A stretch of 64,000 nt of DNA from Minisyncoccota bacterium (GTDB lineage: Bacteria > Patescibacteriota > Minisyncoccia > JAHIHE01 > JAGLIN01). The stretch is from positions 392 through 64,391 of the forward strand of contig JAQVBZ010000006.1 in assembly GCA_028690055.1 (NCBI GenBank). Direction: 5' to 3'. This document shows, in pieces, positions 3,286 through 62,334 of this stretch; within the stretch, counting starts at the first letter, position 1; every line of letters starts with the position of its first letter. Below the pieces are notes generated by a model. It was not told the origin of the DNA and ran no database searches. It saw only the letters and a list, made by a program, of their open reading frames with translations. The position numbers and the translations under genes were made by a program.

Positions 3286-3364
3286 TTATTATGTTTATAG
3301 GTTTAACTGATATGGCTTTATCTTAGCCTTGAATAACGAAATAGTCAAAAGAGCCGACAATAAG

Positions 3365-3472
3365 ATGGAGTAGCAAACTTTAGTCTGCGCTGCTATCCCA
3401 TGCGGATAAATCACAATTATATATCGCATTTGAGCACGTAAAGCAACAGCGCGGGTTCAAACCCGCTACTCC
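3365..3472. repeat. R2 element copy A (107-bp imperfect palindrome with GGAGTAGC...GCTACTCC termini)
   Basis: It has 8-bp terminal inverted repeats, subterminal hairpins (GCGGGTTCAAACCCGC) and a central GCGGATAAAT motif. It is homologous to the copies at 40218, 41123 and 55094. Confidence 0.8.
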
Positions 3473-3490
3473 ACAAATACACCGCTCGTC

Positions 3491-3952
3491 TCAAAGTCCA
3501 CTCCCCACGCCTTCCGCGAACATCCGTGCCAGATCCAGCTCTTCCGCATCCGGATGATTCTTATTGATACCTCCCAACCATTTGAGTGGACCAAAAGTTG
3601 CCGATCCTAGACAGGAAAAATTACCGATCACGTCGTAATCCTTGGCCCGAAGCTTGTCCTTCAAAGCTTTATGATTCTTGTCCATCTGCACCAAGCCTTT
3701 CAAGCTGCTCGAGAAAAGAAAAACTTTTTTGCCGCTTCCGAAAGGCAGCTTGTCCACCAAAGATAACAAGTTTTGGTCGTGCTTTCCCATATAGATTCCC
3801 GACCCGAATCCGACTAGGTCATATTGACCCAAATCGCCCGCCTGGACCTTGTCCGACCCTACGATAGTCGCGCCCAGCGCCTCCGCCATCACATCGGCAA
3901 TCTTTCTGGTATTGCCTCGATGTTTTGAATCACAGATGATAAGCGTTTTCAT
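3491..3952 (-). CDS. Flavodoxin-like fold protein
   Basis: The N-terminus reads MKTLIICDSKHRGNTRKIA, with an alternating beta/alpha pattern over ~150 aa typical of flavodoxin or NADPH-dependent FMN reductase. Confidence 0.55.
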   Translation of the reverse strand: MKTLIICDSKHRGNTRKIADVMAEALGATIVGSDKVQAGDLGQYDLVGFGSGIYMGKHDQNLLSLVDKLPFGSGKKVFLFSSSLKGLVQMDKNHKALKDKLRAKDYDVIGNFSCLGSATFGPLKWLGGINKNHPDAEELDLARMFAEGVGSGL

Positions 3953-3955
3953 AGA

Positions 3956-4816
3956 TTATAGAATAGTTATGAATAAGACTCCGATTACCATTATAACACC
4001 TCCCATCAATTTCTGCTTGATTTCTTTTTCCCCGAAGATAACGCCACCGAGGATTATTGAAATCAATATTCCCAACCGCTTTATCGCGACTACATAAACC
4101 ACGAGAGTATCTTGGATAGCCAGCATCTGAAAAACCACCATCAATGTCCCCAAAATTCCAACCATAGCCAGATGGGTTTTTTCTTTCCGGATTTCTTTTT
4201 GCTGTTTTCTCATCCTTGTATAAGCGAAAGGAAAAATGAAAGTCGCTATAAGAATGTTTTCCGCCATAGCAAAAAATATCGGCGAAGAGTTCTGCAGCGC
4301 TATCTTATCCAAATTCGCAGTGATGCTCCAAATCAGAGCCGCCGCCAACATCAAACGAGGTCCTTCTTCTTTTGTAAGAACCTTGAAAGGCTTTGTCCAT
4401 CCGTCCTTCCTCTTCTTGATATTCAAAAAGTAGGAACCGAATACTATAAAGATAACCCCTATAAATCCACTTCCGCTAGGAATCTCACCGAGCATCAGAT
4501 AGCTGGTAAGCAACATAAAAAGTGGCGTAAAGGCCATCATGGGCACTGAAACTGACATATCCGAAAGAAGTGACTTGGTGGACAAAACTGCAGCTGTCGC
4601 GCTCAAAAGACAATCTAAGAATAAGACCGACCAAAAGTTTTCGCCCAAAACGGGAAAATCTATAAACAAAAAAGAAATCAATATATATACTCCCGAAAAA
4701 AAGAAAGCGAACCAAGAGACCACGTACTCATCCAGACTGCGCAAGCTTTTCTTGCTTGATACGCCTCTGAGCGCCGAAAAAAGCGCCACCAAAAGCGCAT
4801 AGACGATCCACGTCAT
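3956..4816 (-). CDS. EamA/DMT-family transporter (~10 TM)
   Basis: Hydrophobic segments recur throughout the 286-aa protein, consistent with the duplicated EamA architecture. Confidence 0.65.
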   Translation of the reverse strand: MTWIVYALLVALFSALRGVSSKKSLRSLDEYVVSWFAFFFSGVYILISFLFIDFPVLGENFWSVLFLDCLLSATAAVLSTKSLLSDMSVSVPMMAFTPLFMLLTSYLMLGEIPSGSGFIGVIFIVFGSYFLNIKKRKDGWTKPFKVLTKEEGPRLMLAAALIWSITANLDKIALQNSSPIFFAMAENILIATFIFPFAYTRMRKQQKEIRKEKTHLAMVGILGTLMVVFQMLAIQDTLVVYVVAIKRLGILISIILGGVIFGEKEIKQKLMGGVIMVIGVLFITIL

Positions 4817-5310
4817 ATTCTTCCGTCTTCATATTTTACCAAGTCCGCAAACACGAAATCTTTCACATATCCTTTGTATTTTTTCAAATCTTCCCTGATC
4901 CACCCCGCCGAGATCGGCACTTTCGTCCGGTCTTTATCTACCACAACATTTTCCGCTCCCAACGCCTCCGCCAAAAACTTCCCGTAATTTTCCGAGGAGA
5001 AAACAAAATCTATTTTCACACCCTGAGGCAATTTGCTCTGCGCATAATCGATATGGAGCTTATTGATTTCCGGCGCATGCCCTGTTTTCCGCGGACCTAT
5101 GCCCGCATTCACGACTTCCATCCGCGGATATTCTTTCTTAATCCACGCCATCCGCACTTCGACCGGCACCTTGGTCACAAACGGTACGTCATAAACCAGT
5201 ACAATCAGATAATCGACTTGCGAGAGCGCCTTCTCTAGCAAGAACTGATGTCCCTCGTGCAGTGGCGCAAATTTTCCGATTACCAATCCGGTTGTTCTTT
5301 TGTCTGTCAT
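4813..5310 (-). CDS. Cytidylyltransferase-fold nucleotidyltransferase, NadM-like (possible NMN adenylyltransferase)
   Basis: It carries the (H/T)xGH-type motif GKFAPLHEGH and is 165 aa long. The start overlaps the upstream gene by 4 bp. Confidence 0.6.
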   Translation of the reverse strand: MTDKRTTGLVIGKFAPLHEGHQFLLEKALSQVDYLIVLVYDVPFVTKVPVEVRMAWIKKEYPRMEVVNAGIGPRKTGHAPEINKLHIDYAQSKLPQGVKIDFVFSSENYGKFLAEALGAENVVVDKDRTKVPISAGWIREDLKKYKGYVKDFVFADLVKYEDGRI

Positions 5311-5318
5311 TGTATTTT

Positions 5319-5627
5319 TTATACCTTTTTAATTCCCCTCGTCCCTAAAATAAATAAAATCAAAATCATTATTTTCAAAAAATAATAACCGTCAGGGTCA
5401 ACAAAATCGCGAGTCATTGCCGTCATCCTCCCTACGGCGAGGTGAGCGAAAACACTGATCGGCAAAGTCAAAAATATCCAATTCTTTTCAGGCACTACGA
5501 GACCAAGTTTCTTGAAACCCTTAGAAAGAAACGGGGCAAGCAGACACATCCCCAGAAAAGCTAGAGCTAAATCAAAAACCGCATAATTGCCTATATGGTA
5601 TTGCCTCAAAAAATCTATTATTCCCAT
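5319..5627 (-). CDS. Small membrane protein, hypothetical
   Basis: Three hydrophobic segments are visible. It lies 9 bp upstream of the nucleotidyltransferase gene on the same strand. Confidence 0.4.
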   Translation of the reverse strand: MGIIDFLRQYHIGNYAVFDLALAFLGMCLLAPFLSKGFKKLGLVVPEKNWIFLTLPISVFAHLAVGRMTAMTRDFVDPDGYYFLKIMILILFILGTRGIKKV

Positions 5628-6000
5628 ATTTTATCATTATAACCATATGAAATAGATGGATTCCCTCCCGACGCACAAAATTCATTTCATTCCAGATAAC
5701 TTCAGTATAAATTAAAAACCGGTAAAATACAACAGAAACAGCTATCACAATAGTATGGAAAAAGCATTTACCCTATAAATTGAAATCAAGAAACTGCTTT
5801 ATCGCCGATTAGAACACTGCTCAAAAACATCTTTTTCGACCTCACCCACGGCGATTGATTTTCAAATCCTTGCAAAAAGGCACGATTTTGCCTATCACCA
5901 GCCTCATTGTCGGAAGTTTTTCCACTCTGGCAATCTTTATTTTCCATTTTAGATAAAGCAATCTCAGCAAATATCAAAAGTCATATAGATCCGATAATGA

Positions 6001-7138: not shown

Positions 7139-7268
7139 ATGTCGAACGGATGTGAGGAATCTGGGAAATGCACGATATTAACATAGATGTTATTTTAGAA
7201 ACACACATTACCTCGGTATCGCATTTTCCCAGATTCCTCAATCGGAGTACCTCATTTCGGAATGACAA
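7139..7268. repeat. R1 MITE-like unit (inverted arm pair flanking ~40 bp)
   Basis: The left arm is GTCATGTCGAACGGATGTGAGGAATCTGGGAAATGCACGATA. The right arm is TTTCCCAGATTCCTCAATCGGAGTACCTCATTTCGGAATGAC. Confidence 0.85.
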
Positions 7269-7303
7269 AAAGAAGGTTGGCTATAGTAGCACATATATCC
7301 TTC

Positions 7304-9394: not shown

Positions 9395-9820
9395 TTAAGC
9401 CTTTGCCGCACCGGTTTTTTGTTTGGTAACCAGGCGGATGAAAAATGTTAGGACCAGGAGACACCAAAGGGCATATACCTTCGGAACAAGGAGTAGGTAT
9501 TTACCCTCTCCCAATTCAACAAAATCCCATTCATCAGGATTTCTGTGCCAGGGCAGAAGGAATATTAAAAACCTAAAAATTCCTTCTGGCAAAACTTCTG
9601 CAATCATCTCTTCGGAAATATTAAATATCAGTCCGAAGTGAGGCATATATTTTGCCTTGAATTTGCGTTTTCCTATGTCTTCATTCCTCGGAAATCTCAG
9701 CACTGCAACGTCTATGATACGATACGCTGTGCTATCCTCTTTTTGACGCCTGTATATCAACAGTCCAAAAAGATGGAACAGAAATCTGAAAAGTGGATCC
9801 AAAAATGGAGCCTTTTCCAT
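9395..9820 (-). CDS. Hypothetical protein (141 aa), partly hydrophobic
   Basis: The call rests on ORF length and the C-terminal hydrophobic stretch only. Confidence 0.3.
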   Translation of the reverse strand: MEKAPFLDPLFRFLFHLFGLLIYRRQKEDSTAYRIIDVAVLRFPRNEDIGKRKFKAKYMPHFGLIFNISEEMIAEVLPEGIFRFLIFLLPWHRNPDEWDFVELGEGKYLLLVPKVYALWCLLVLTFFIRLVTKQKTGAAKA

Positions 9821-26574: not shown

Positions 26575-26905
26575 CGCGTCATCCTGAGGTACTCCGAAGG
26601 ATCCCGTTTATATCCCGCACGAAGTGTCATTCTGAGATATTTGGGAAAAATATCAGACTCAAGAACAGAGCAATAAAATAAAAAAATTTTGTCATTCCGG
26701 AATGAGGTACTCCAACTGAGGAATCTGAGAAAAATACCATGCAATCCCAGAGTTTTGTCCATAAAGATAATATCAGGCGATTTTTACTCAAACCCCAGAT
26801 TTCTCATTCGCAAAAGGGCACAAGATATTTTGCCCCTACAATACAAAATGACAAGATACGCGCTGTGTCATCCTGAGGTATACCGAAGGATCCCGTTATG
26901 TCCTG
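26575..26905. repeat. Cluster of R1 repeat arms (at least four copies at 26578, 26623, 26693 and 26869)
   Basis: The copies read GTCATCCTGAGGTACTCCGAAGGATCCCG, GTCATTCTGAGATATTTGGGAAA, GTCATTCCGGAATGAGGTACTCCAACTGAGGAATCTGAG and GTCATCCTGAGGTATACCGAAGGATCCCG. ORFs here (26505..26762, 26689..26913) are repeat translations. Confidence 0.8.
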
Positions 26906-34349: not shown

Positions 34350-35233
34350 AATAAATAATTGAAAGAAATTAGAATTAGTACAAAAAATCGCCCTTGAACA
34401 GGTCGACTTTGATATACAGGCAAAAGCAAAGCAACCTATCTTAAAACGGTAACCCTAAGGCAACAGACGGATTGACTTTGTGTAGATTTCATTATTATTT
34501 GTAATCATTGGAATAAATGGTAGCATTTCTGACCAATTTGTCAATAAAATAGGACGATACGAACACGAATCTCACAAACTCCATTTTAAATGCCCATCCA
34601 TATTTCTGCCATACCGCCCCCCATTTTGTCTAAATAAACACCTCTTATATATATCACACTATTTTTGAATACAGTGAAGAGATAAACTATCGCCACGCAG
34701 AAGCTTCTTGCGATTGTAACGGAGGTGACCTTACTATAATCTACCATAAATGACATTATAAGTAGATATCATTGCGAAGGTGGCAATAGTTGAGTAGCGA
34801 AAAAAGCAAATAAAAAAAAGACGCGATGGGCCGACGTCTTCACGAAACTCGCAAAATCCAGAAAAAAGATATAAGTTTTTACAAGATTGCTTTTTGGTAA
34901 TTATCTTATATATCTCAGATTTTTTACATCATACAAAAGCTGCTATGGCAGTTATTGCCCCCAAAACACAAGCAAGCATATTAGGGACCAGCAAAAAATA
35001 ATCCTTCTTTCCATATGTATACAGACTCCAAACGGAGCCGTTTAAAGCTGTCGCAAGCGGCTGAATATATATTACTACGCCCTTGAAAGTTTGAAATCAA
35101 AATCTCAATTAAGGAAAAGAACATAATTATTGCGAGAACGGAGGCAATGCTGCCAATTTTCTTTTCGTTTTTCTACAAAAAAATCTGCAAGCGATAAGCG
35201 CGACGGCATGTCAAGATTCTTGAGTTTCGCGAT

Positions 35234-37471
35234 CTAACTGTCAAACCTGATTACCTCTCCGGGCTTGATTTCTCTCGTTTCTTTCTTGACACCACCTGCT
35301 GGAATACTCTCTGTATTGCCGGCTGATTTTTCCACTTTGGGCACGAAAACAGGCTTCGCGGCTTGCGATTTTACAACTGGAGACTTCGGTAAAATAACTT
35401 CTTGCTTTTTACCCATCCTAGGCAAAACTTCCGCTGCCTTTTTTGCTTCCTGTGTTTTCGGCTTAGTCGGTGCGGCAACAACAGTCCTCACTTCTTCCTT
35501 CCTTGTCTCCTTCGGCGCGATATCGGACGGCTCACGATAGACGATTTGTTTTTTCTGCCCCTCTGCCGCAAGTCTTTTCCTCTCGTAGAATTCAATCATC
35601 TTTTGCGGATCATAAGTGATTTTTTTCGGTTCGACTTTAGGCACAACCGTTTCCCTGACCTCTTTTTTTATAGTAGTCGCAGTCTGCACTTTCTTTTCCA
35701 CAATTACCTCCCTATCTACCACCTGAGGGGCCTCTCTTACCGGTAACGCCTCCGACTTGGGCGAGGAAGAAAGAGTGGGGGTCGGAATAGATGGAGTTGG
35801 TGGAATTGAAGCGGGTGCAACGGGTACTGGAGCGACCGGCACCGGTGCGACCACCGGCGATTGCACCGGCGACACCGATGCCGTTTCCGCTTTTATGGCA
35901 GGAGCCGCCATTTCAACCGGTGCGACAACCGGACGATCTGCTTGAGGTTGAGACGGTTTTATTCCGTCCGCGGTTTGTTGACGAACCTTCAACAGACAAT
36001 CCTTACAATAAGTCGCACGCGCTGGATCCGGCTGAAAAGGAACTTTTATGCCAGTGCCACAAGTAGAGCAAACAGCATCCCACATCTCACGATTATCCAC
36101 CCTTTCTTTTTTCTCCCCCTGAGAATTATGGTTAACTTTGATATTCTCCGGCAGAGAAGGATCAGTCCGCAGTTCACCACTCTCTTCATCTTTGACATAA
36201 CCCGACCAGCGAGCAACCTTGTCTTCCACTTCTTCTCTTTTCTTGGTATAGCGCTCGCGCGAGACTCTGACAATCTTCTCCGGATCGCTCTTAACGGTAA
36301 CTTGGATCGGCGGCAGCGAAGTGGCGCTGAAAGCATCACCCGACACCCCGTCAATCATCAATTTCAAGTACATATCATATTTCGCCAAATTAACCAAATC
36401 GTTCATCATAAAAATCGGCTCGAATTCCTTTTCCAGAAATTCCGCATCGGTAGCACCCACTCGGAAGCTGATAATAGTACCGACATTACCAAAAATAGCA
36501 TCGCTCACTGTCTCTTCCAGCTGACCGATATATTGGTGCGCCACAATCAAATCCAGACGATATTTTCTCGCCTCAGACAAAATTCCCGCAAAGGAATCCG
36601 TGGCAAAATTTTGGAACTCATCAACATAGAGATAAAAGTCTTTACGTTCTTCCTCCGGCGTGTCTACGCGCCCCATAGCCGCCAACTGGATTTTTGTAAT
36701 AAGCATCGCACCCAGCAAAGCACTGTAATCTTCTCCGATTCTTCCCTTGGAAAGATTAACGATGAGAATCTTTTTATTGTCCATGATATCCCGCATATCG
36801 ATGGAAGAGTGCGGCTGCGAAACAATGTTACGCACCAAAGAGCTCGACAAAAACTGCCCGACCTTGTTCTGAATCGGAGAAATCGCCTCAACCGTAAACT
36901 GTTTGGAATATTTCGTAAATTCATCCGTCCAAAAAGTCTTCACTACAGGGTCGGAAATCTTGCTCACCACTTTCTTACGATAATCCTCATCGATGAGCAA
37001 ACGCGGCACACCCAAAAGCGTGCTGTCCGGATATTCCAAAAGCGCCAAAATCGTATTTCTAAGGAGATACTCCAACCTAGGACCCCAAGAATCCGCCCAA
37101 ATTTTCTTGAAGACTCCGATAAGTCCGGAAGCGATCAGGTGGCGATACTTGGGATCAACGTGCTCCATCACGTTAAAAGCGATCGGATAATCTATGTCCG
37201 CCGGATTAAAATATATGACATCGTTTACTCGGTTGGCGGGAATGAAATTCAAAATCTCCTCCGCCAGATCCCCGTGCGGATCGACCACAGCCAAACCTTG
37301 ACCGCTAATGATGTCGGAGATGATCATATTTTCCAAGAGAGTTGTCTTACCCATACCGGTCTTTCCAATCACGTACATATGCCGACGGCGATCCTCACGC
37401 TTGATACCGAAGGTATGCTCCTTTCCGCGAAAATTGGTCTTACCAAAATAGGTGATATCGTTATTTTCCAT
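35234..37471 (-). CDS. FtsK/HerA/VirD4-superfamily P-loop ATPase (T4SS coupling-protein-like) with C-terminal CxxC...CxxC zinc ribbon and ~270-aa Pro/Val/Ala/Lys-rich disordered tail
   Basis: Walker A (VIGKTGMGKTTL) is followed by VVDPHGDL, as in T4CP and HerA families. Walker B is YLYVDEFQNF and a sensor is AHQYIGQ. The ribbon is CSTCGTGIKVPFQPDPARATYCKDCL. The tail is encoded by GC-rich imperfect tandem DNA repeats at ~35800-35900. Confidence 0.6.
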   Translation of the reverse strand: MENNDITYFGKTNFRGKEHTFGIKREDRRRHMYVIGKTGMGKTTLLENMIISDIISGQGLAVVDPHGDLAEEILNFIPANRVNDVIYFNPADIDYPIAFNVMEHVDPKYRHLIASGLIGVFKKIWADSWGPRLEYLLRNTILALLEYPDSTLLGVPRLLIDEDYRKKVVSKISDPVVKTFWTDEFTKYSKQFTVEAISPIQNKVGQFLSSSLVRNIVSQPHSSIDMRDIMDNKKILIVNLSKGRIGEDYSALLGAMLITKIQLAAMGRVDTPEEERKDFYLYVDEFQNFATDSFAGILSEARKYRLDLIVAHQYIGQLEETVSDAIFGNVGTIISFRVGATDAEFLEKEFEPIFMMNDLVNLAKYDMYLKLMIDGVSGDAFSATSLPPIQVTVKSDPEKIVRVSRERYTKKREEVEDKVARWSGYVKDEESGELRTDPSLPENIKVNHNSQGEKKERVDNREMWDAVCSTCGTGIKVPFQPDPARATYCKDCLLKVRQQTADGIKPSQPQADRPVVAPVEMAAPAIKAETASVSPVQSPVVAPVPVAPVPVAPASIPPTPSIPTPTLSSSPKSEALPVREAPQVVDREVIVEKKVQTATTIKKEVRETVVPKVEPKKITYDPQKMIEFYERKRLAAEGQKKQIVYREPSDIAPKETRKEEVRTVVAAPTKPKTQEAKKAAEVLPRMGKKQEVILPKSPVVKSQAAKPVFVPKVEKSAGNTESIPAGGVKKETREIKPGEVIRFDS

Positions 37472-37659
37472 AATTTTGTTTATTTAAATATTCCCCCTCC
37501 TTTTATTTTACCCTTATTTTCATCAATCGGAAATATTACCGACCCATCCGCTTCTTTATCATGGCTTATTTTATTACCTTTGATATTTTACAGCCCCCCA
37601 CCTAAAGAGAGAAATAAACACGAAACCGTATCAGATTTCGCCAATAAGCCGTAAGCCAA

Positions 37660-38925
37660 CTAAATGGGCAAAGTGGAAGGAGGTTTGCCTTTTTTAGCTT
37701 CCACTTTCGGCACCACCGAACCTCTGACTTCCTTGGTTGGGAAATGAAAAAGGGTCGCCAGTTCATCGGAAGTCAGTATGAAACTCTGAACATCCAAAAT
37801 CCGAGCTTTATATCTTCTGAGCACGGATTTTTTCTTTATCGCTTTTCTATAATCCGGAAAGAAATAGTAAGCGCTGGTTTTGGTCCGCCCGTCCGGCCTA
37901 AAACTGTTTATCATATCGTTGCCGAATTGCGTGAAGTATGAGAAGAAAATAGAATTAGCTCTTCCCTTATTGAAAACTTTGCGCTGTGCGGCATAAACGT
38001 AACGGATATCGGTTTCAAATCCCGGCCTCATCAATTTCTCATCAATAGCATCAATGACCGCCTTTTCCCCGGAAGACAGACGCATCATCATACCGAGAGG
38101 ATCGCTCTTCTTCTCTTCCGCCGCTGAAGTACTGGCGCTGAACATACCGGAAAGAACTTTACCTATTTCACTGAGCATATCTTTCAAAAATCCCGGTGCA
38201 GGTTCTTTTACTTCCCTTCCCGCCAATTTTAGGACTATATTCTTGCCTGCTTCTTTCCACTTATCACTAGTCGGACGCACCAAAATCTGAATCCAGATCT
38301 GTTCGTCTGGTCCGATCTTATTGACACCTTCCACAATATTTCCCAACGGATCGATGTACTCTCCCGAACCCTGATCCTCAAACTCTTTCCAAGTCCGGAT
38401 AGGATATGCGCTATCTCTGGCCAGTTTCATATCCGTCCCCCATATGTCATATTCGTCGTTAGGAACATCATCCGGCACACTGGTAACGTATTCACTCACC
38501 TCATTTATTTCCGCATCCGGGTATTGGGCATATATCTGCGACTCTACTATATCCCTATGCATATCTATCGTTCGGATATAAAAATGCACGTCACCCTCGA
38601 AGCTGACGATTTCAAAACTGAACCAAGAATCAACGACACCACTCAGATAGATATCGTAAAGGGTATCGATGGCCACGTCATACACACTCGCCAAGCCGGA
38701 AAAAAATTCCTCCATCGCTTTCGGACGGATTTCTATGCCGGCGGGAACTTTGACCTCCAGAATATTCCACTTCAGATTCCTGATATATTTTTCCTGCACA
38801 TAAATTACCCAAAATCCCTGGAATATCGGCCACAAAAAATAAAACGTAAAAAACCACCAGTACTCGATGTAAACACTGATTGCCCCCTTGATGGATTCAT
38901 CAAGAATAACAGAAAAACTTACCAT
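37660..38925 (-). CDS. Single-pass membrane protein, hypothetical (421 aa), partner of the downstream ATPase
   Basis: An N-terminal TM segment (YIEYWWFFTFYFLWPIFQGFWVIY) precedes a large soluble domain. Its stop is 188 bp before the ATPase start on the same strand. Confidence 0.5.
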   Translation of the reverse strand: MVSFSVILDESIKGAISVYIEYWWFFTFYFLWPIFQGFWVIYVQEKYIRNLKWNILEVKVPAGIEIRPKAMEEFFSGLASVYDVAIDTLYDIYLSGVVDSWFSFEIVSFEGDVHFYIRTIDMHRDIVESQIYAQYPDAEINEVSEYVTSVPDDVPNDEYDIWGTDMKLARDSAYPIRTWKEFEDQGSGEYIDPLGNIVEGVNKIGPDEQIWIQILVRPTSDKWKEAGKNIVLKLAGREVKEPAPGFLKDMLSEIGKVLSGMFSASTSAAEEKKSDPLGMMMRLSSGEKAVIDAIDEKLMRPGFETDIRYVYAAQRKVFNKGRANSIFFSYFTQFGNDMINSFRPDGRTKTSAYYFFPDYRKAIKKKSVLRRYKARILDVQSFILTSDELATLFHFPTKEVRGSVVPKVEAKKGKPPSTLPI

Positions 38926-38943
38926 ATTTGTTTTATGCCTAAA

Positions 38944-40011
38944 TTATTTCAGGCGATAGACTTTGTTCGGGAGTTTCTCAAAATTTTTCTTGTTCTGCAG
39001 ATTGAGGACGACAGTATTTCTCTTGACTTGTCTTCGTCCCATAACCTCTTTGATAATTTCCTCCTGATCCATTGTCCCACCTTTTTCTTTCATTATTTCC
39101 ATTATAACATCAAGTACCACTCCAGGTCTATAACCCCATTCCTTCAGAGCGTAAATTCCGCGTCCGATCAGCACAAAACGGACATCCTTGATAAGCTCAT
39201 TGTGGACAGTTTGATTGTTGGTCGGTTTCTTGCTCGTCCAAAAACCGTTGATTTTGCCGGTAATTTCCGTAAAGTGCAGTGGCTTATCTTCTCGCTTGAG
39301 CGCGAGATAAGCCTTGTCTTTGACACTCTTAGGGTTGATATGCGGCCATTTGTGATGTCCCCACTGCCCGAGAATATTTTCCAACACGAGCTTGTTCACG
39401 TCCAGATAGGAACGGATCGACTCGTGCGAAAATTCATTCATACCTTCTTTCTTCACGCTCTTGCGCGCCAGCTCCACCAATTCATTGAAGCTTAGGCTCT
39501 TTTTGGTTGTCCGAAAATAATCTTCCAAAATCTCCAAGGTCTTTTCAAAAATCTCCACACCACTCGTTTCATAAAAATAAAATTTCTTATGACTCAGGCC
39601 CTCCTTGGATTTCTGGATAGACGGATCCAGGTCCAAAAGTAAAACAACAATCTGCTTGTTCAGATTTTTATCTCCTCCATCAAAAAGACATTTGACCAAC
39701 CGATCTTCTCCGACCAATCCGCCACTTTCCTCGATGACATTCTTTACATAATCGAACACCCTCTCCAAATCATACTTCACGACATTCGCCTTGAGTTTGG
39801 CGATAGATTCCGTTTCAATCTGCCTGACCCGCTCGCGGGTAATATCATACTCCTTGCCGATCCGATCCAGCGTCTGTACACCTTTGCTATCAAGATTGTA
39901 TCTCTTGATAATAACATTGCGTTGTCTGTCGCTCAATACTTTGAGCATATCAAAAACCAACTTGTTAAGGTCGATTTTTAAATCGCCTTTTCCTTCTAAT
40001 CGCTTGTTCAT
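38944..40011 (-). CDS. Putative transcription factor: N-terminal sigma-70 region-4-like HTH plus C-terminal HARE-HTH (RNAP delta-like) domain
   Basis: The N-terminus (LSDRQRNVIIKRYNL...TLDRIGKEYDITRERVRQIETESIAKLK) matches sigma-70 region 4. The C-terminus (FTEITGKINGFW...RFVLIGRGIYALKEWGY) matches the HARE-HTH pattern. It ends 18 bp upstream of the membrane-protein gene. Confidence 0.5.
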   Translation of the reverse strand: MNKRLEGKGDLKIDLNKLVFDMLKVLSDRQRNVIIKRYNLDSKGVQTLDRIGKEYDITRERVRQIETESIAKLKANVVKYDLERVFDYVKNVIEESGGLVGEDRLVKCLFDGGDKNLNKQIVVLLLDLDPSIQKSKEGLSHKKFYFYETSGVEIFEKTLEILEDYFRTTKKSLSFNELVELARKSVKKEGMNEFSHESIRSYLDVNKLVLENILGQWGHHKWPHINPKSVKDKAYLALKREDKPLHFTEITGKINGFWTSKKPTNNQTVHNELIKDVRFVLIGRGIYALKEWGYRPGVVLDVIMEIMKEKGGTMDQEEIIKEVMGRRQVKRNTVVLNLQNKKNFEKLPNKVYRLK

Positions 40012-40217
40012 ATGTTTTATAATTTATCCTTTAATATCAAAAATAGTACTGCCATAATATATCACGATTAAAAAGAGGTGTCAAGCTTTTGCAATTTAAG
40101 AAACGCATTATACCATTTTTGCAAAATATTATTTTAATCAAAAATACCATTCCGTCTTGTTCGAAATGCGTACTAGCCCGAAGGATTCGGAGAGTAAATA
40201 AGATATTACATCTACAT

Positions 40218-40324
40218 GGAGTAGCGGGATTTATCCCGCGCGGCTATCACAAGCCGATAAATGCGCTATATACATTCCTTTTTTCCTGCGTGGAACAACT
40301 GCGCAGACTGAAGTCTGCTACTCC
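40218..40324 (+). repeat. R2 element copy B
   Basis: It has GGAGTAGC...GCTACTCC termini and internal hairpins (GCGGGATTTATCCCGC and GCAGACTGAAGTCTGC). It is the reverse complement of copy C. Confidence 0.85.
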
Positions 40325-41122
40325 ATTTTATATATCAACCAGTGAGGAGAAGAAATAAAGAATATTTAAATCTTATGTGGACCGGGTCTGGAGACCACGC
40401 TCCGGCAAACGCAAAAAAACAGCGAACCCGAAGATCTGCTGTTTTTATGCGGGAGCAGATTTGAATCTACTCCATCTCTGCGCGGGAACAGGCTTAAACC
40501 TGTTCTTTCTCTTAAACGCCTACAAACTTTCGATTGAAGACTTTTCCAAAACCGCAAAGGTTTGTGGGTTTGGAAAAAGATTTAGGGAGGGCAGTTATTA
40601 TACCCCAAACCTCCCCAATTGCGTTTTTTTAATTGCTACATTTTTGAAAGCTTTCATCGGAATACTATATACTTTTGGGTCCTCGCAAGTTAGTATCAAG
40701 CTCCGAAGCTCCTTATTGTTGTATGCAAGAGATAAATAATATCCGTTTGCACACACTATGATTACAGTTCCTATGGGAATGGGAAGTTCGTTGACCCATT
40801 GAACATTTTTCTCTTCTATCTCCACTCCTTCTTCCAAAAAAACCCTTTACATCTTCTACAGTAAAAAAATTCATAATTCTCCTCCTTTTAGGTGTTTTTT
40901 TGTTTCTATTATTTTATTCTTTTTGACTTAAGAGCTTAACCGTAATATTTTACAATTAAATCCTTAATCAAAGATTTTTTTAAAAAGCTCTCCTTACTAA
41001 ACCAGGGAGGATAACGAAGGCGATTTTGTTTTTTCTTTCGGCGATGGGAAACTATAATATAATTTATGTCCCGAACGATTAAACTCTCTCCTTCGTAATT
41101 CTCGCTGGTTTATATATAAGGT

Positions 41123-41229
41123 GGAGTAGCAGACTTCAGTCTGCGCGGTTGTCCCACGCGAGAAAGAAGAAATATATACCTCGCATTTTTCGGCTTGTGA
41201 TAGCCGCGCGGGATAAATCCCGCTACTCC
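41123..41229 (-). repeat. R2 element copy C (inverted relative to copy B)
   Basis: It matches the reverse complement of 40218-40324 at nearly every position. Together the two copies bracket 770 bp of non-coding DNA. Confidence 0.85.
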
Positions 41230-41359
41230 ATGTAAACGGAATTTCCTATGTAACTCCAGATTCCTTAGTGATAAATAACGAATGTGGCACTATTTTTCAT
41301 TCATAACTTGCCATCATAGCACAGCATTACATATTTGTCAAGTATTTTCTTTACAACCC

Positions 41360-41388
41360 TTGACTTCTTCCTAAAAATCATCTAGAAT
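41360..41388 (+). promoter_or_regulatory. Sigma-70-like promoter of the atp operon: TTGACT, 17-nt spacer, TAGAAT
   Basis: TTGACT is at 41360-41365 and TAGAAT at 41383-41388. This is ~37 bp upstream of the atpB start. Confidence 0.6.
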
Positions 41389-41424
41389 GCCTCTGTTATT
41401 AAGTAAGAAAGTAAATCAGAAGAA

Positions 41425-55093: not shown

Positions 55094-55199
55094 AGGAGTT
55101 GCAGGTTTTAACTTGCGCGATTGTCACAAGCCGATAAATGCGACGTATAATTACCCCGCGCGCGCGTAGGATAGCAGCGCAGGTTAAAACCTGCTACTC
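55094..55199 (-). repeat. R2 element copy D
   Basis: Its reverse complement begins GGAGTAGCAGGTTTTAACCTGCGCTGCTATCC and ends ...GCAAGTTAAAACCTGCAACTCC. It has the same hairpin and GATAAATGCG architecture as the other R2 copies. Confidence 0.8.
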
Positions 55200-55221
55200 C
55201 GCTTAAGGTACGGTTTTCCTC

Positions 55222-62027: not shown

Positions 62028-62197
62028 ATAAATAAAATCTACGAGATTATACTATTAAACTGAAAAATATGTTTTTCATCTTTCCAACGTTTTGTGCCAT
62101 TCCCTCCTGCGCCGGAATTGTTCAGTTTGAATAATTAAATGACAATTTTAATTAGATAAATGCTTTAGCGGTTAAGAACCGAATATATTATGTCATT

Positions 62198-62334
62198 TCA
62201 AAATGAGGTACTCCGATTGAGAAATCTAGGCAAGATATCGCAACGATAATAAAGTTATCTTTATAAATAACATTCACATCCCTGGTACATTTCCCAGATC
62301 CCTCAGGCGGGTACACCATTCGGGATGACAAATT
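62198..62334. repeat. R1 MITE-like unit (inverted arms)
   Basis: GTCATTTCAAAATGAGGTACTCCGATTGAGAAATCTAGG at 62198 and the inverted TTTCCCAGATCCCTCAGGCGGGTACACCATTCGGGATGAC at 62287-62334. Confidence 0.8.

Follow-up and report, generated by a model that had tools for sequence, protein, structure and literature searches.

A vertically conserved gene triad of Patescibacteria encoding a coupling-protein-type ATPase, a DUF8128 protein, and a predicted DNA-binding protein

Our data make it fairly probable that three genes in the 64-kb window (the whole stretch of DNA that was analyzed) make up an operon that belongs to the core genome of Parcubacteria-type Patescibacteria (CPR), is passed on vertically, and encodes an exapted, two-polypeptide translocation ATPase of the coupling-protein type together with a dedicated DNA-binding partner; we regard this as the best joint explanation of the locus. 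All three open reading frames lie on the minus strand: gene 1 (38944..40011) encodes 355 aa with a sigma-70 region 4 and a HARE-HTH domain, gene 2 (37660..38925) a DUF8128 protein of 421 aa, and gene 3 (35234..37471) an ATPase of 745 aa. The ORF list and Pfam thus bear out the original prediction of three codirectional genes between ORF-poor flanks, down to the coordinates and the domains of genes 1 and 3. As had also been predicted, housekeeping functions account for the remaining genes of the window that were examined (glycolysis, ATP synthase, Suf, a Mur ligase, UvrC, ribosomal protein L25, and others), and searches of the 10 kb to the left and right and of the remaining large ORFs in the window revealed no relaxase, VirB4, or nuclease partner. 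The 64-kb window as a whole holds no T4SS components, no relaxase, and no origin-of-transfer-like feature.

The operon is conserved far beyond the genome at hand. In a sample of 80 species-representative Patescibacteria genomes, picked by a DUF8128 match, the order sigma-r4/HARE-HTH gene, DUF8128 gene, T4CP-like ATPase gene recurs in ~95% of the species-level genomes, and in many of them the housekeeping genes around it are the same too. The HTH gene is upstream of DUF8128 in 68 of 72 loci and the ATPase gene downstream of it in 70 of 73, with median intergenic gaps of 65 to 67 nt; in the reverse direction, three distant homologs picked by HTH similarity had the same neighbors (3/3). The check proposed at the outset, whether the three genes occur together in relatives, thus had a positive outcome. 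Linkage is broken in a few cases, with DUF8128 alone in L031, L032, and L013 and a 69%-identical ATPase alone in L002. Order and strand are unchanged in L001 and L003, and the arrangement ATP synthase, triad, PALP (cysteine-synthase-like) gene is common to the window, L003, and L008 to L011; among L001, L091, L093, and L094 the flanking genes vary and the triad is intact in each. Median identities are 66% for the ATPase and 37% for both the HTH protein and the DUF8128 protein. ATPases from 77 loci in different species share 58 to 95% identity, which points to strong purifying selection.

Gene 3 encodes an ATPase of the FtsK/HerA/VirD4 superfamily, as predicted, and is more precisely similar to type IV coupling proteins (T4CPs) of the VirD4/TrwB type, an assignment on which Pfam, NCBIfam, PDB sequence, and Foldseek searches were brought to bear and in which sequence and fold both point first to TrwB, DotL, and Cag-beta. 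Its motor domain (nt 36107-37471, minus strand) contains a Walker A motif GKTGMGKT (residues 36-43; nt 37343-37366) and a Walker B motif YLYVDEF (residues 280-286; nt 36614-36634), both on the minus strand and both invariant among homologs, as well as the motif VVDPHGD at residues 62-68. Pfam matches were TrwB_AAD_bind (residues 26-338; 40.3 bits, cutoff 20.5), T4SS-DNA_transf (27.2 bits, cutoff 20.1), TraG-D_C (26.3 bits, cutoff 22), DUF87 (marginal, with 24.7 bits at a threshold of 23.2), and a treble-clef zinc finger; the NCBIfam T4CP equivalogs all scored far below their cutoffs (e.g., TraD with 46.9 bits versus 366). Among PDB sequences, TrwB (E = 2.6e-7) and DotL were matched. Foldseek, run on the AlphaFold2 (AF2) model, placed TrwB, DotL, and Cag-beta first (E ~1e-10, TM ~0.41-0.49), with HerA (~1e-7) and VirB4 (~1e-4) at lower ranks. 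Residues 107-231 form a helical block in the model, and taken together Pfam, AF2, and Foldseek reveal an all-alpha insertion in the nucleotide-binding domain and a TrwB-like fold; the AF2 models of the DUF8128 protein and of the ATPase are both of moderate confidence (pLDDT 72.6 and 68.7). More than 8,000 homologs exist, with 66 to 94% identity among the best 120 listed. Two other assignments of the motor were rejected. A VirB4-type motor does not fit, since TIGR00929 scored 13.5 bits at a cutoff of 643 and VirB4 structures rank behind T4CPs and HerA; FtsK/SpoIIIE does not fit either, since Pfam FtsK_SpoIIIE remained below threshold (17.4 bits, cutoff 24) and covered only the P-loop (residues 16-52), no gamma domain was found with Pfam, and no transmembrane segment was detected (highest 19-residue hydropathy, 1.37).

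The C-terminal part of the ATPase carries a treble-clef zinc ribbon, CxxC-x17-CxxC (residues 461-495; 35987..36091, minus strand; Pfam zf_Tbcl_2, E = 4e-11; TIGR04272, E = 1.7e-12), followed by a tail of 250 aa (35237..35986, minus strand) that is predicted from composition and charge to be disordered (V 14%, P 14%, K 12%, A 11%; net charge, +13). Both features had been anticipated, the ribbon with a spacing of x18 and the tail, correct in its Pro/Val/Ala/Lys-rich composition, with a length of ~270 aa. The zinc ribbon is a lineage-variable accessory, since it is present in 45 of 74 orthologs. The tail ends in a conserved peptide, EIKPGEVIRFDS (nt 35237-35272, minus strand), and the terminal motif (E)IKxGE[VI][IV][KR]F is common to the orthologs with a zinc ribbon, in which tail length varies. 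Compared with the VirD4/TrwB T4CPs (TrwB of R388, DotL of Legionella, Cag-beta of H. pylori), the window ATPase shares the motor fold and a family-level sequence signal but differs in several respects: the known proteins have an N-terminal transmembrane domain in the same chain, whereas only 35 residues precede Walker A here and a separate DUF8128 protein is encoded upstream; the zinc ribbon and the disordered tail are additions; and the gene is chromosomal, vertically inherited, and does not adjoin relaxase or T4SS genes.

What takes the place of the missing N-terminal domain may be read from gene 2. Its DUF8128 family (PF26449) is a precomputed assignment, made as PF26449.1 for the identical protein P0121 and for 118 of the 119 other homologs among the matches listed. 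Judged by sequence comparison, gene 2 is the N-terminal half of a fused form of the ATPase family, here present as a separate gene. Indeed, a plasmid protein of Niallia sp. XMNu-256 (WP_338473401.1; 867 aa) carries both halves: residues 48-313 align with the DUF8128 profile (hhalign 97.8%, E = 8.8e-13) and residues 328-721 with the ATPase profile (hhalign 99.85%, E = 1.3e-30). Likewise, phrog_5156 matches DUF8128 at positions 78-359 (E = 1.6e-16) and the ATPase at 402-805 (E = 3.7e-61), and a DUF8128-like domain followed by the ATPase is found in single proteins of the haloarchaeal plasmid pHAR01 of Halorubrum (WP_173230956.1) and of Priestia pFDU301A. The Niallia protein is encoded next to Replic_Relax, TcpC, TcpE, and a second, VirB4-like ATPase, and thus occupies the coupling-protein position in a Tcp/ICEBs1-type conjugation cluster of a Firmicute (Bacillaceae). 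In the plasmid and virus proteins (Niallia, Halorubrum pHAR01, PHROG 5156) the halves follow each other as genes 2 and 3 do in the window. However, they are single chains borne by plasmids or viruses and not split genes, they have no sigma-r4/HARE-HTH neighbor, their identity to the window ATPase is ~30%, and the Niallia fusion lacks an obvious N-terminal hydrophobic helix.

The aromatic-rich hydrophobic helix near the N terminus of gene 2 (residues 23-45; nt 38791-38859, minus strand) has a Kyte-Doolittle mean of 1.44, which is below the classical transmembrane threshold, and its insertion into the membrane is therefore only probable. The view of gene 2 as a single-pass membrane protein holds to that extent, and has to be extended by its kinship to the N-terminal half of the fusions. 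For the remainder of the protein, the AF2 model predicts an alpha/beta domain in the cytoplasm whose fold is VirB4/TrwK-like; TrwK is the best structural match, with the aligned TrwK segment not reported by the fold tools, and a sequence-profile comparison of DUF8128 with TrwK or with TrsD of pGO1 gave no signal. VirB4 proteins such as TrwK of R388 have a non-ATPase N-terminal domain followed by an FtsK/HerA-superfamily motor, as do DUF8128 and the ATPase taken together, and pGO1 sets a precedent for a split, in that the N-terminal part has a gene of its own, trsD, immediately before the ATPase gene trsE. TrsD is homologous to the VirB4 N-terminal domain (PMC12102498). The motor of the window, in contrast, is much nearer to T4CPs than to VirB4 (Foldseek E of 1e-10 versus 1e-4). 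EccE-EccC of the mycobacterial ESX (type VII) systems offers only an analogy, the likeness being much weaker than that to TrwK, and other ESX components are not present.

Gene 1 encodes a predicted DNA-binding protein, according to Pfam, NCBIfam, and PDB sequence matches. A sigma-70 region-4 HTH (Pfam Sigma70_r4, residues 23-74, E = 3.8e-13; nt 39790-39945) and a HARE-HTH/RNAP-delta-like winged helix (Pfam HARE-HTH, residues 229-292, E = 9.6e-9; nt 39136-39327) are both encoded on the minus strand. The RNA polymerase delta subunit (RpoE) has its HARE-HTH domain at the N terminus, followed by an acidic tail. The architecture of gene 1 is different, since TIGR04567 (46.4 bits, cutoff 42) matches at residues 229-292 of 355 and a sigma region 4 is present in addition. 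NCBI names the product "sigma factor-like helix-turn-helix DNA-binding protein." A sigma-70 family sigma factor was considered and rejected: sigma region 2 was not detected with Pfam, NCBIfam, or PDB sequences, Sigma70_r4 being the only sigma domain found, all NCBIfam sigma scores were far below their cutoffs, and PDB sequence matches were confined to region 4. It is possible, if doubtful, that gene 1 encodes an RNAP-associated sigma-4/delta-like factor that is functionally unrelated to the ATPase pair and merely shares its promoter or operon, which would fit both readings of genes 2 and 3. RNAP subunits contain counterparts of both recognizable domains, namely sigma region 4 and the N-terminal domain of RpoE/delta, and some homologs are labeled RNAP delta subunit by JGI. 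However, the adjacency of gene 1 is kept from 86% down to 31% identity, with a median gap of 65 nt, and this would be unusual for unrelated genes amid otherwise shuffled neighborhoods.

In our model of an exapted coupling-protein-type ATPase with a dedicated partner, the DUF8128 protein would bind the ATPase, as the fusions and the synteny suggest. The contact would probably be made by the C-terminal ELATLFHFP...PPxxLP region, since this region adjoins the ATPase N terminus in the fused form; gene 2 has there the conserved motif DELATLFHFPT (nt 37735-37767, minus strand) and, at its extreme C terminus, the peptide KPPSTLPI (nt 37663-37686, minus strand). DUF8128 would tether a hexameric motor at the cytoplasmic membrane, comparable to the VirB4 N-terminal domain or the transmembrane domain of a classical T4CP. 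The sigma-r4/HARE-HTH protein may bind double-stranded DNA and hand the substrate, DNA or nucleoprotein, over to the motor in the manner of relaxosome accessory proteins or the gamma domain of FtsK; alternatively, it might autoregulate the operon. The zinc ribbon and the basic tail could provide additional, lineage-specific binding of nucleic acids or partners. Most likely, the complex would act at the membrane as an ATP-driven receptor that also pumps its substrate, DNA or nucleoprotein, and would probably deliver it to an MPF-FATA-like chromosomal T4SS that is encoded elsewhere in most Patescibacteria; for the substrate as well as for any link to the T4SS, this is what we infer. The T4SS of Patescibacteria belongs to the monoderm MPF-FATA type, and 2,918 of 3,035 genomes of the group carry homologs of VirD4-type T4CPs, 5,713 in all, of which only 148 lie near virB4; their "exapted" function was left open (PMC12102498).

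A role independent of the T4SS is quite possible, since T4CP genes rarely lie near virB4, occur in ~500 more genomes than VirB4, and since in "Ca. Southlakia epibionticum" the T4CP is not essential while the T4SS is (PMC12102498). The specific case of a T4SS-independent, membrane-tethered DNA pump, i.e., a self-contained FtsK/SpoIIIE- or TraB-like machine for chromosome or plasmid handling at division or for DNA import or export, in which the HTH protein would act as an FtsK-gamma-like sequence reader, appears rather unlikely to us. It is consistent with the core-genome position and the very strong conservation of the motor, with the predicted dsDNA-binding partner, with the basic tail and zinc ribbon, and with membership in the FtsK/HerA superfamily; FtsK/SpoIIIE even shares the general logic of membrane anchor, Pro-rich linker or tail, hexameric motor, and winged-helix DNA reader. 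However, the gamma and polytopic N domains are absent from the window ATPase and its DNA-binding module is a separate protein, the FtsK_SpoIIIE match does not go beyond the P-loop, and the single hydrophobic helix of DUF8128 offers no obvious channel. Furthermore, at least one Patescibacterium has an ftsK-annotated gene (TM7x_00370), and FtsK loss is therefore not general in the group (PMC10768705). Finally, the closest fused relative lies in a conjugation locus next to a second, VirB4-like ATPase.

The locus had also been described as an island, possibly a degraded conjugative or DNA-uptake module, and its flanks bear on that. Between 34350 and 35233 (884 bp) there is indeed no ORF of at least 60 aa, but the stretch is not gene free in the strict sense, since it contains a decayed SemiSWEET gene (34932-35190, minus strand) disrupted by nonsense and frameshift mutations. 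The ORF-poor 1.4-kb stretch on the other side contains, besides a probable small gene, blocks whose sequence is shared with related species, and conserved structured noncoding elements were observed in the flanks of the triad. A promoter-like site, TTGACA-17-TATATT with an extended TG (40056..40084, minus strand; 11 of 12 matches in a consensus scan), is located 45 nt upstream of gene 1 within a conserved block (40016-40093; 79 to 90% identity in L003 and L008 to L011) and may serve as the promoter of gene 1. The R2 elements do form an inverted pair (arms 40174-40346 and 41101-41273; 173 nt, 83% complementary). R2 is, however, a family dispersed in the window (3366, 40217, 41121, and 55094), and related species have homologous spacer blocks; the copies are therefore not insertion borders. 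Both the R2 pair and the bounding noncoding DNA are specific to the lineage and do not mark the ends of a mobile element. They belong to the atpB-HTH spacer, which measures 285 bp in L003 and 1.3 to 1.6 kb in the closest relatives.

A horizontally acquired island is thus very improbable, even though the ATPase is homologous to conjugative coupling proteins, repeats and ORF-poor DNA lie on both sides, and relaxase and VirB4 are absent nearby: GC is ordinary (0.43-0.48 in the triad versus 0.30-0.50 across the window), a tRNA scan found none, no integrase is among the neighboring genes examined, and gene order and housekeeping synteny are shared with relatives. Nor is the module degraded, as the intact Walker motifs and the identity of its ATPase across species attest. 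An anti-phage defense system on a HerA- or mad8-like ATPase, to which PADLOC's mad8 (MADS) match (E = 5.7e-16, ATPase residues 9-370), the weak HerA matches with HerA folds in the second tier, the match of gene 1 region 4 to MzaA of the MZA system, and the HARE-HTH domains known in restriction enzymes (Pfam description) might point, is just as remote, and a defense role for the triad is unlikely because defense genes occur patchily and turn over fast, quite the contrary of its fixed position and its nearly universal, vertical conservation; moreover, the MzaA match is to a generic sigma region 4 (55 bits, cutoff 800), DUF8128 had no PADLOC match, and the 10 kb flanking the triad on each side contain no other MADS or MZA gene and no gene for a Sir2, a nuclease, or a methyltransferase. 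Gene 3 as a HerA-type helicase or defense ATPase was likewise rejected, given the marginal DUF87 match and the lack of a NurA-, Sir2-, or DUF4297-like or other effector partner and of the other MADS components.

In sum, we propose a coupling-protein-type ATPase in two polypeptides, probably accompanied by its own DNA-binding protein, as a core component of these genomes. The triad offers a concrete starting point for explaining the coupling-protein genes that nearly all Patescibacteria carry.

Taken together, our data identify the three minus-strand genes as a chromosomally fixed module built around a split ATPase of the coupling-protein type, together with a VirB4-like partner and a sigma-4/HARE-HTH protein. 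The window belongs to a MAG of Candidatus Pacebacteria/Paceibacterota (Patescibacteria, CPR). ORF calling recovered all three at exactly the positions first proposed. Gene 1 (38944..40011) matches the Pfam families Sigma70_r4 and HARE-HTH; gene 2 (37660..38925) has the precomputed assignment PF26449 (DUF8128), and its product is identical to the NCBI MAG entry PHX30_02370; gene 3 (35234..37471) matches TrwB_AAD_bind, T4SS-DNA_transf, TraG-D_C, DUF87, and a treble-clef zinc finger. The contig was also found in several metagenomes. The observation on which the original prediction was built is confirmed, and its interpretation, an island with either a degraded conjugative or DNA-uptake module or an ATPase-based translocation or defense system, is supported in part. 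All sequence motifs quoted there are present; the zinc ribbon reads CxxC-x17-CxxC, not x18 as claimed, and the tail of the ATPase is Val/Pro/Lys/Ala rich as described, with a length of 250 aa instead of ~270 and a net charge of +13.

The three genes co-occur in relatives as well. A DUF8128 profile scan of one genome per GTDB species gave 407 confirmed loci, 80 of which were retrieved; by record title, these include Paceibacterota, Moraniibacteriota, and Harrison-, Portnoy-, Wolfe-, Jorgensen-, and Buchananbacteria, among others. Where the flanking sequence was long enough to judge, the HTH gene directly precedes DUF8128, in the same orientation, in 68 of 72 loci, and the T4CP-like ATPase gene directly follows it in 70 of 73, with median intergenic gaps of 65 to 67 nt. 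Conversely, three distant homologues of the HTH protein (38 to 42% identity), picked by HTH similarity alone, were all followed by DUF8128 and the ATPase, with different outer neighbors. Median identity is 66% for the ATPase (range, 58 to 95%) compared to 37% each for DUF8128 and the HTH protein. The linkage is not absolute: among the homologous loci from other Patescibacteria (L001 to L094), DUF8128 occurs without the triad partners in L013, L031, and L032, adjoining unrelated genes in L013 and L031, where no alternative partner was found, and L002 has a 69%-identical ATPase with no partner nearby.

Three further features of the gene order should be mentioned. SecD/SecF genes are found directly upstream of the triad in L001 (1-935), L065 (3927-4841), and L091 to L093 (~3300-5825), lineages that are otherwise arranged differently, and this adjacency may be an ancestral synteny. 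In some genomes, another T4CP-like paralogue, 45% identical and with neither a zinc ribbon nor a TM segment, is encoded just downstream of the triad (L065, 9196-12635; L068, 6927-8243); in L065, the gene for a Cys-rich protein of 581 aa, which matches a treble-clef zinc finger, lies in between. This second paralogue may correspond to the approximately two T4CP homologues per genome described in the literature. In the window, the DUF8128-ATPase spacer (37472-37659) is 188 nt long compared to a median of 67 nt in relatives and contains a terminator-like hairpin on the minus strand (37620-37641); the ATPase might, as an addition, be transcribed separately in this lineage.

Four independent observations support the idea that DUF8128 and the ATPase are the halves of one unit. 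An 867-aa "DUF87" protein on a plasmid of Niallia (Bacillaceae) matches DUF8128 with residues 48 to 313 (hhalign, 97.8%, E = 8.8e-13) and the ATPase profile with residues 328 to 721 (99.85%, E = 1.3e-30), and its join falls exactly at the end of gene 2 and the start of gene 3. The fused gene adjoins Replic_Relax, TcpC, TcpE, and a further ATPase and thus occupies, within a conjugation cluster of the Tcp/ICEBs1 type, the place of the coupling protein. In PHROG family 5156 (824 positions), DUF8128 matches positions 78 to 359 and the ATPase 402 to 805; a protein of a giant Halorubrum plasmid has a DUF8128-like part followed by the ATPase, as in Niallia; and on a Priestia megaplasmid, a DUF8128-like region is located directly upstream of the ATPase region, apparently fused to it. 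A precedent for such a split exists in VirB4: trsD of pGO1 is located directly upstream of trsE, and TrsD is homologous to the N-terminal domain of VirB4 (PMC12102498).

The gene 2 product itself had no match in the local copy of Pfam, all 22 members of its alignment, compared with this copy at E ≤ 10, revealed no related family, and the DUF8128 profile matched no PDB sequence. Comparison of DUF8128 with TrsD of pGO1 and TrwK of R388 by hhalign gave no signal, and therefore, the likeness to VirB4 is one of predicted structure only. A literature search for DUF8128 or PF26449 found no paper. The family comprises 2,956 representatives at 50% clustering; the best 150 listed are all stand-alone proteins of ~340 to 690 aa (mostly 400 to 550), with no fusions among them and only Pro-rich extensions in the long ones. 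An aromatic hydrophobic helix near the N terminus (residues 23 to 45) is followed by a Lys/Arg-rich stretch, which suggests, by the positive-inside rule, a cytoplasmic C-terminal domain. At the extreme C terminus, 80 of 85 homologues have the motif K(G)xPPxxLP[IVF] (nt 37663-37686 in the window), which long-tailed homologues carry again at their very end; judged from this pattern, it may act as a docking peptide.

Among proteins of solved structure, TrwB (E = 2.6e-7) and DotL, both coupling proteins, are closest to the ATPase in sequence, and a Foldseek search with the AF2 model of residues 1 to 500 (pLDDT 68.7) returned TrwB, DotL, and Cag-beta at the top (E ~1e-10), followed by HerA (~1e-7) and VirB4 (~1e-4). 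Walker A and Walker B are invariant among homologues. Hydropathy analysis revealed no hydrophobic segment, and therefore, the ATPase, in contrast to classical coupling proteins, is devoid of an N-terminal transmembrane domain. Of 74 orthologues, 45 carry the zinc ribbon, and the tails of these end in (E)IKxGE[VI][IV][KR]F (nt 35237-35272 in the window); orthologues without it end differently, in amphipathic LRxALxESLxKK-like helices. The conserved end peptides of DUF8128 and the ATPase look like docking motifs for a further partner. Alignment of the ATPase with TrsE (VirB4) and TrsK (VirD4) of pGO1 by hhalign gave only P-loop or Walker-B fragments. The closest plasmid homologue, a Sulfitobacter gene (41% identity), is solitary among transposases and uninformative.

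All PDB matches of gene 1 are to sigma-70 region 4, and its HARE-HTH passes the model of the N-terminal domain of RNAP delta (46.4 bits; cutoff, 42). A sigma factor is ruled out by the lack of region 2, and the architecture differs from that of an RNAP delta subunit; NCBI names the product "sigma factor-like HTH DNA-binding protein." A strong promoter-like site (40056-40084) is located 45 nt upstream of gene 1 within a conserved block. Literature searches for HARE-HTH together with sigma, and for mad8, found nothing useful.

In our model, which starts from the observed domain identities, fusions, and conserved operon, DUF8128 would tether a hexameric T4CP-type motor to the membrane, and both proteins together would reconstitute a VirB4-like two-domain ATPase. 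The HTH protein may provide DNA recognition or autoregulation, and the zinc ribbon and the basic tail may contribute to the binding of nucleic acids or partners. The motor may feed the chromosomal MPF-FATA-like T4SS or act alone. It is imaginable, although we consider it unlikely, that the triad is a minimal, T4SS-independent DNA-translocation machine of Parcubacteria core cell biology, in which a VirB4-like N-terminal domain and a coupling-protein-like ATPase, possibly near the common ancestor of VirB4 and T4CP, have their own sigma-4/HARE-HTH DNA-recognition subunit. If so, it could be used for chromosome handling at the membrane or for DNA exchange with, or uptake from, the host cell. A replacement of FtsK by the triad is weakened by the presence of a gene annotated as ftsK in TM7x (PMC10768705).

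The proposed origin of the triad as a mobile island is contradicted by its distribution, with relatives keeping the triad order between identical neighbors. In L003, the triad is located between ATP synthase genes and genes for PALP (cysteine synthase-like), an FAD oxidoreductase, and thioredoxin; both flanks are common to the window and L008 to L011, and the PALP-side flank is shared by L001, L015, L016, L018, L022 to L025, and L030. The GC content at 35 to 40 kb (0.43 to 0.48) is within the range of the window, and a tRNA scan found no tRNA in the window. The noted lack of a relaxase and of VirB4 is borne out: neither these nor an integrase was found in the 10 kb to each side of the triad or in the remaining large ORFs of the window. 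Functions encoded by these ORFs include glycolysis, ATP synthase, Suf, Mur ligase, UvrC, ribosomal protein L25, and a P-type ATPase. The inverted pair of the R2 repeat, taken as a border, does exist (40174-40346 and 41101-41273, 83% complementary). However, the atpB-HTH spacer in which it is located is 1.3 to 1.6 kb long in L008, L009, and L011, 520 bp in L010, and 285 bp in L003; since this spacer is partly conserved and its long form is a trait of the closest clade, the R2 pair does not mark insertion borders. Hence, flanking repeats do not justify calling a T4CP match in a CPR genome a mobile element. A role of the triad in defense, to which a PADLOC match of the ATPase to mad8 would point, is likewise contradicted by the distribution.

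The 884 bp downstream of gene 3 (34350-35233), described as gene-free, contain a decayed SemiSWEET (MtN3_slv) gene on the minus strand (34932-35190), disrupted by one frameshift and, close to its start, by an in-frame stop codon; the frameshift-repaired product (81 aa) matches PF03083 (E = 1.5e-8; 35 bits; cutoff, 23.7). In L011, the orthologue (9442-9716) is disrupted at another site, which points to decay on separate occasions or to assembly errors in homopolymers. R2 is present in four copies of ~110 nt (3366-3474, 40217-40326, 41121-41231 [inverted], and 55094-55202). It is a structured palindromic repeat that is closed by GGAGTAGC...GCTACTCC and forms a small hairpin at both ends. R2 folds much better than shuffled sequence (z = −3.3 to −6.7), and its hairpin stems vary among copies yet remain paired. 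R2 has no Rfam or tRNA match and looks like a MITE, a REP-like element, or a small RNA; the superficial likeness of its ends to a tRNA acceptor stem was dismissed, as ARAGORN found nothing and each hairpin consists of a tetraloop on a 6-bp stem. Rfam searches of the whole window at the gathering threshold and of both flanks at E ≤ 1 gave nothing credible.

The atpB-HTH spacer contains three further elements. A single-copy structured element of ~115 nt (~40996-41112, minus strand), conserved in L011 (83%) and L009 (71%), has a closing stem of ~22 bp whose pairing is kept through four double (compensatory) changes in three species. It has no Rfam match, and a metagenome scan found close relatives from one sampling site alone, too few for a covariation test; its role may be that of a cis-regulatory leader or of a small RNA. 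A probable small gene, as judged from the sequence, is located at 40598-40874 (minus strand). Its ATG (40874) comes after a strong ribosome-binding site (AAAGGAGGAGAATT), and a seven-T run separates it from a 79-aa ORF (40598..40837) in a different frame; if the run were one T shorter, the product would be a protein of 91 aa, for which there was no Pfam match and no homologue in related loci. Finally, a 36-nt perfect-stem palindrome (40542-40577; TTTTCCAAAACC...GGGTTTGGAAAA) is 83 to 95% conserved in L008, L009, and L011, occurs twice in L011, and has no T-run after it on either strand. Two more dispersed short repeat families are found in intergenic DNA throughout the window: TTGTCATTCCGAAATGAGGTACTCCGATTGAGGAATCTGGGA and variants (848-892, 1279-1328, 1562-1611, 7224-7273, 26687-26746, 62188-62247, and others) and GTCATCCTGAGGTACTCCGAAGGATC (22797, 25348, 26578, 26867, 42536, and 48529).

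One or two "orphan" coupling-protein genes are located far from type IV secretion genes in nearly every Patescibacteria genome. A 2025 survey found VirD4-type homologues in 2,918 of 3,035 genomes, only 148 of them near virB4, reported the T4CP of "Ca. Southlakia epibionticum" to be dispensable, and left an exapted function open (PMC12102498). The coupling-protein-type module described here fits this picture and adds two conserved partners: one orphan paralogue is part of a fixed three-gene unit, together with a protein of VirB4-like predicted fold, the other half of a protein fused in conjugative plasmids, and a sigma-4/HARE-HTH DNA-binding protein. With these partners, hypotheses on complex formation, membrane tethering, and DNA binding can be tested where there was only an annotation puzzle before; in addition, the locus gives the Pfam family DUF8128 a structural and functional context and provides an evolutionary connection between coupling proteins and the VirB4 N-terminal domain.
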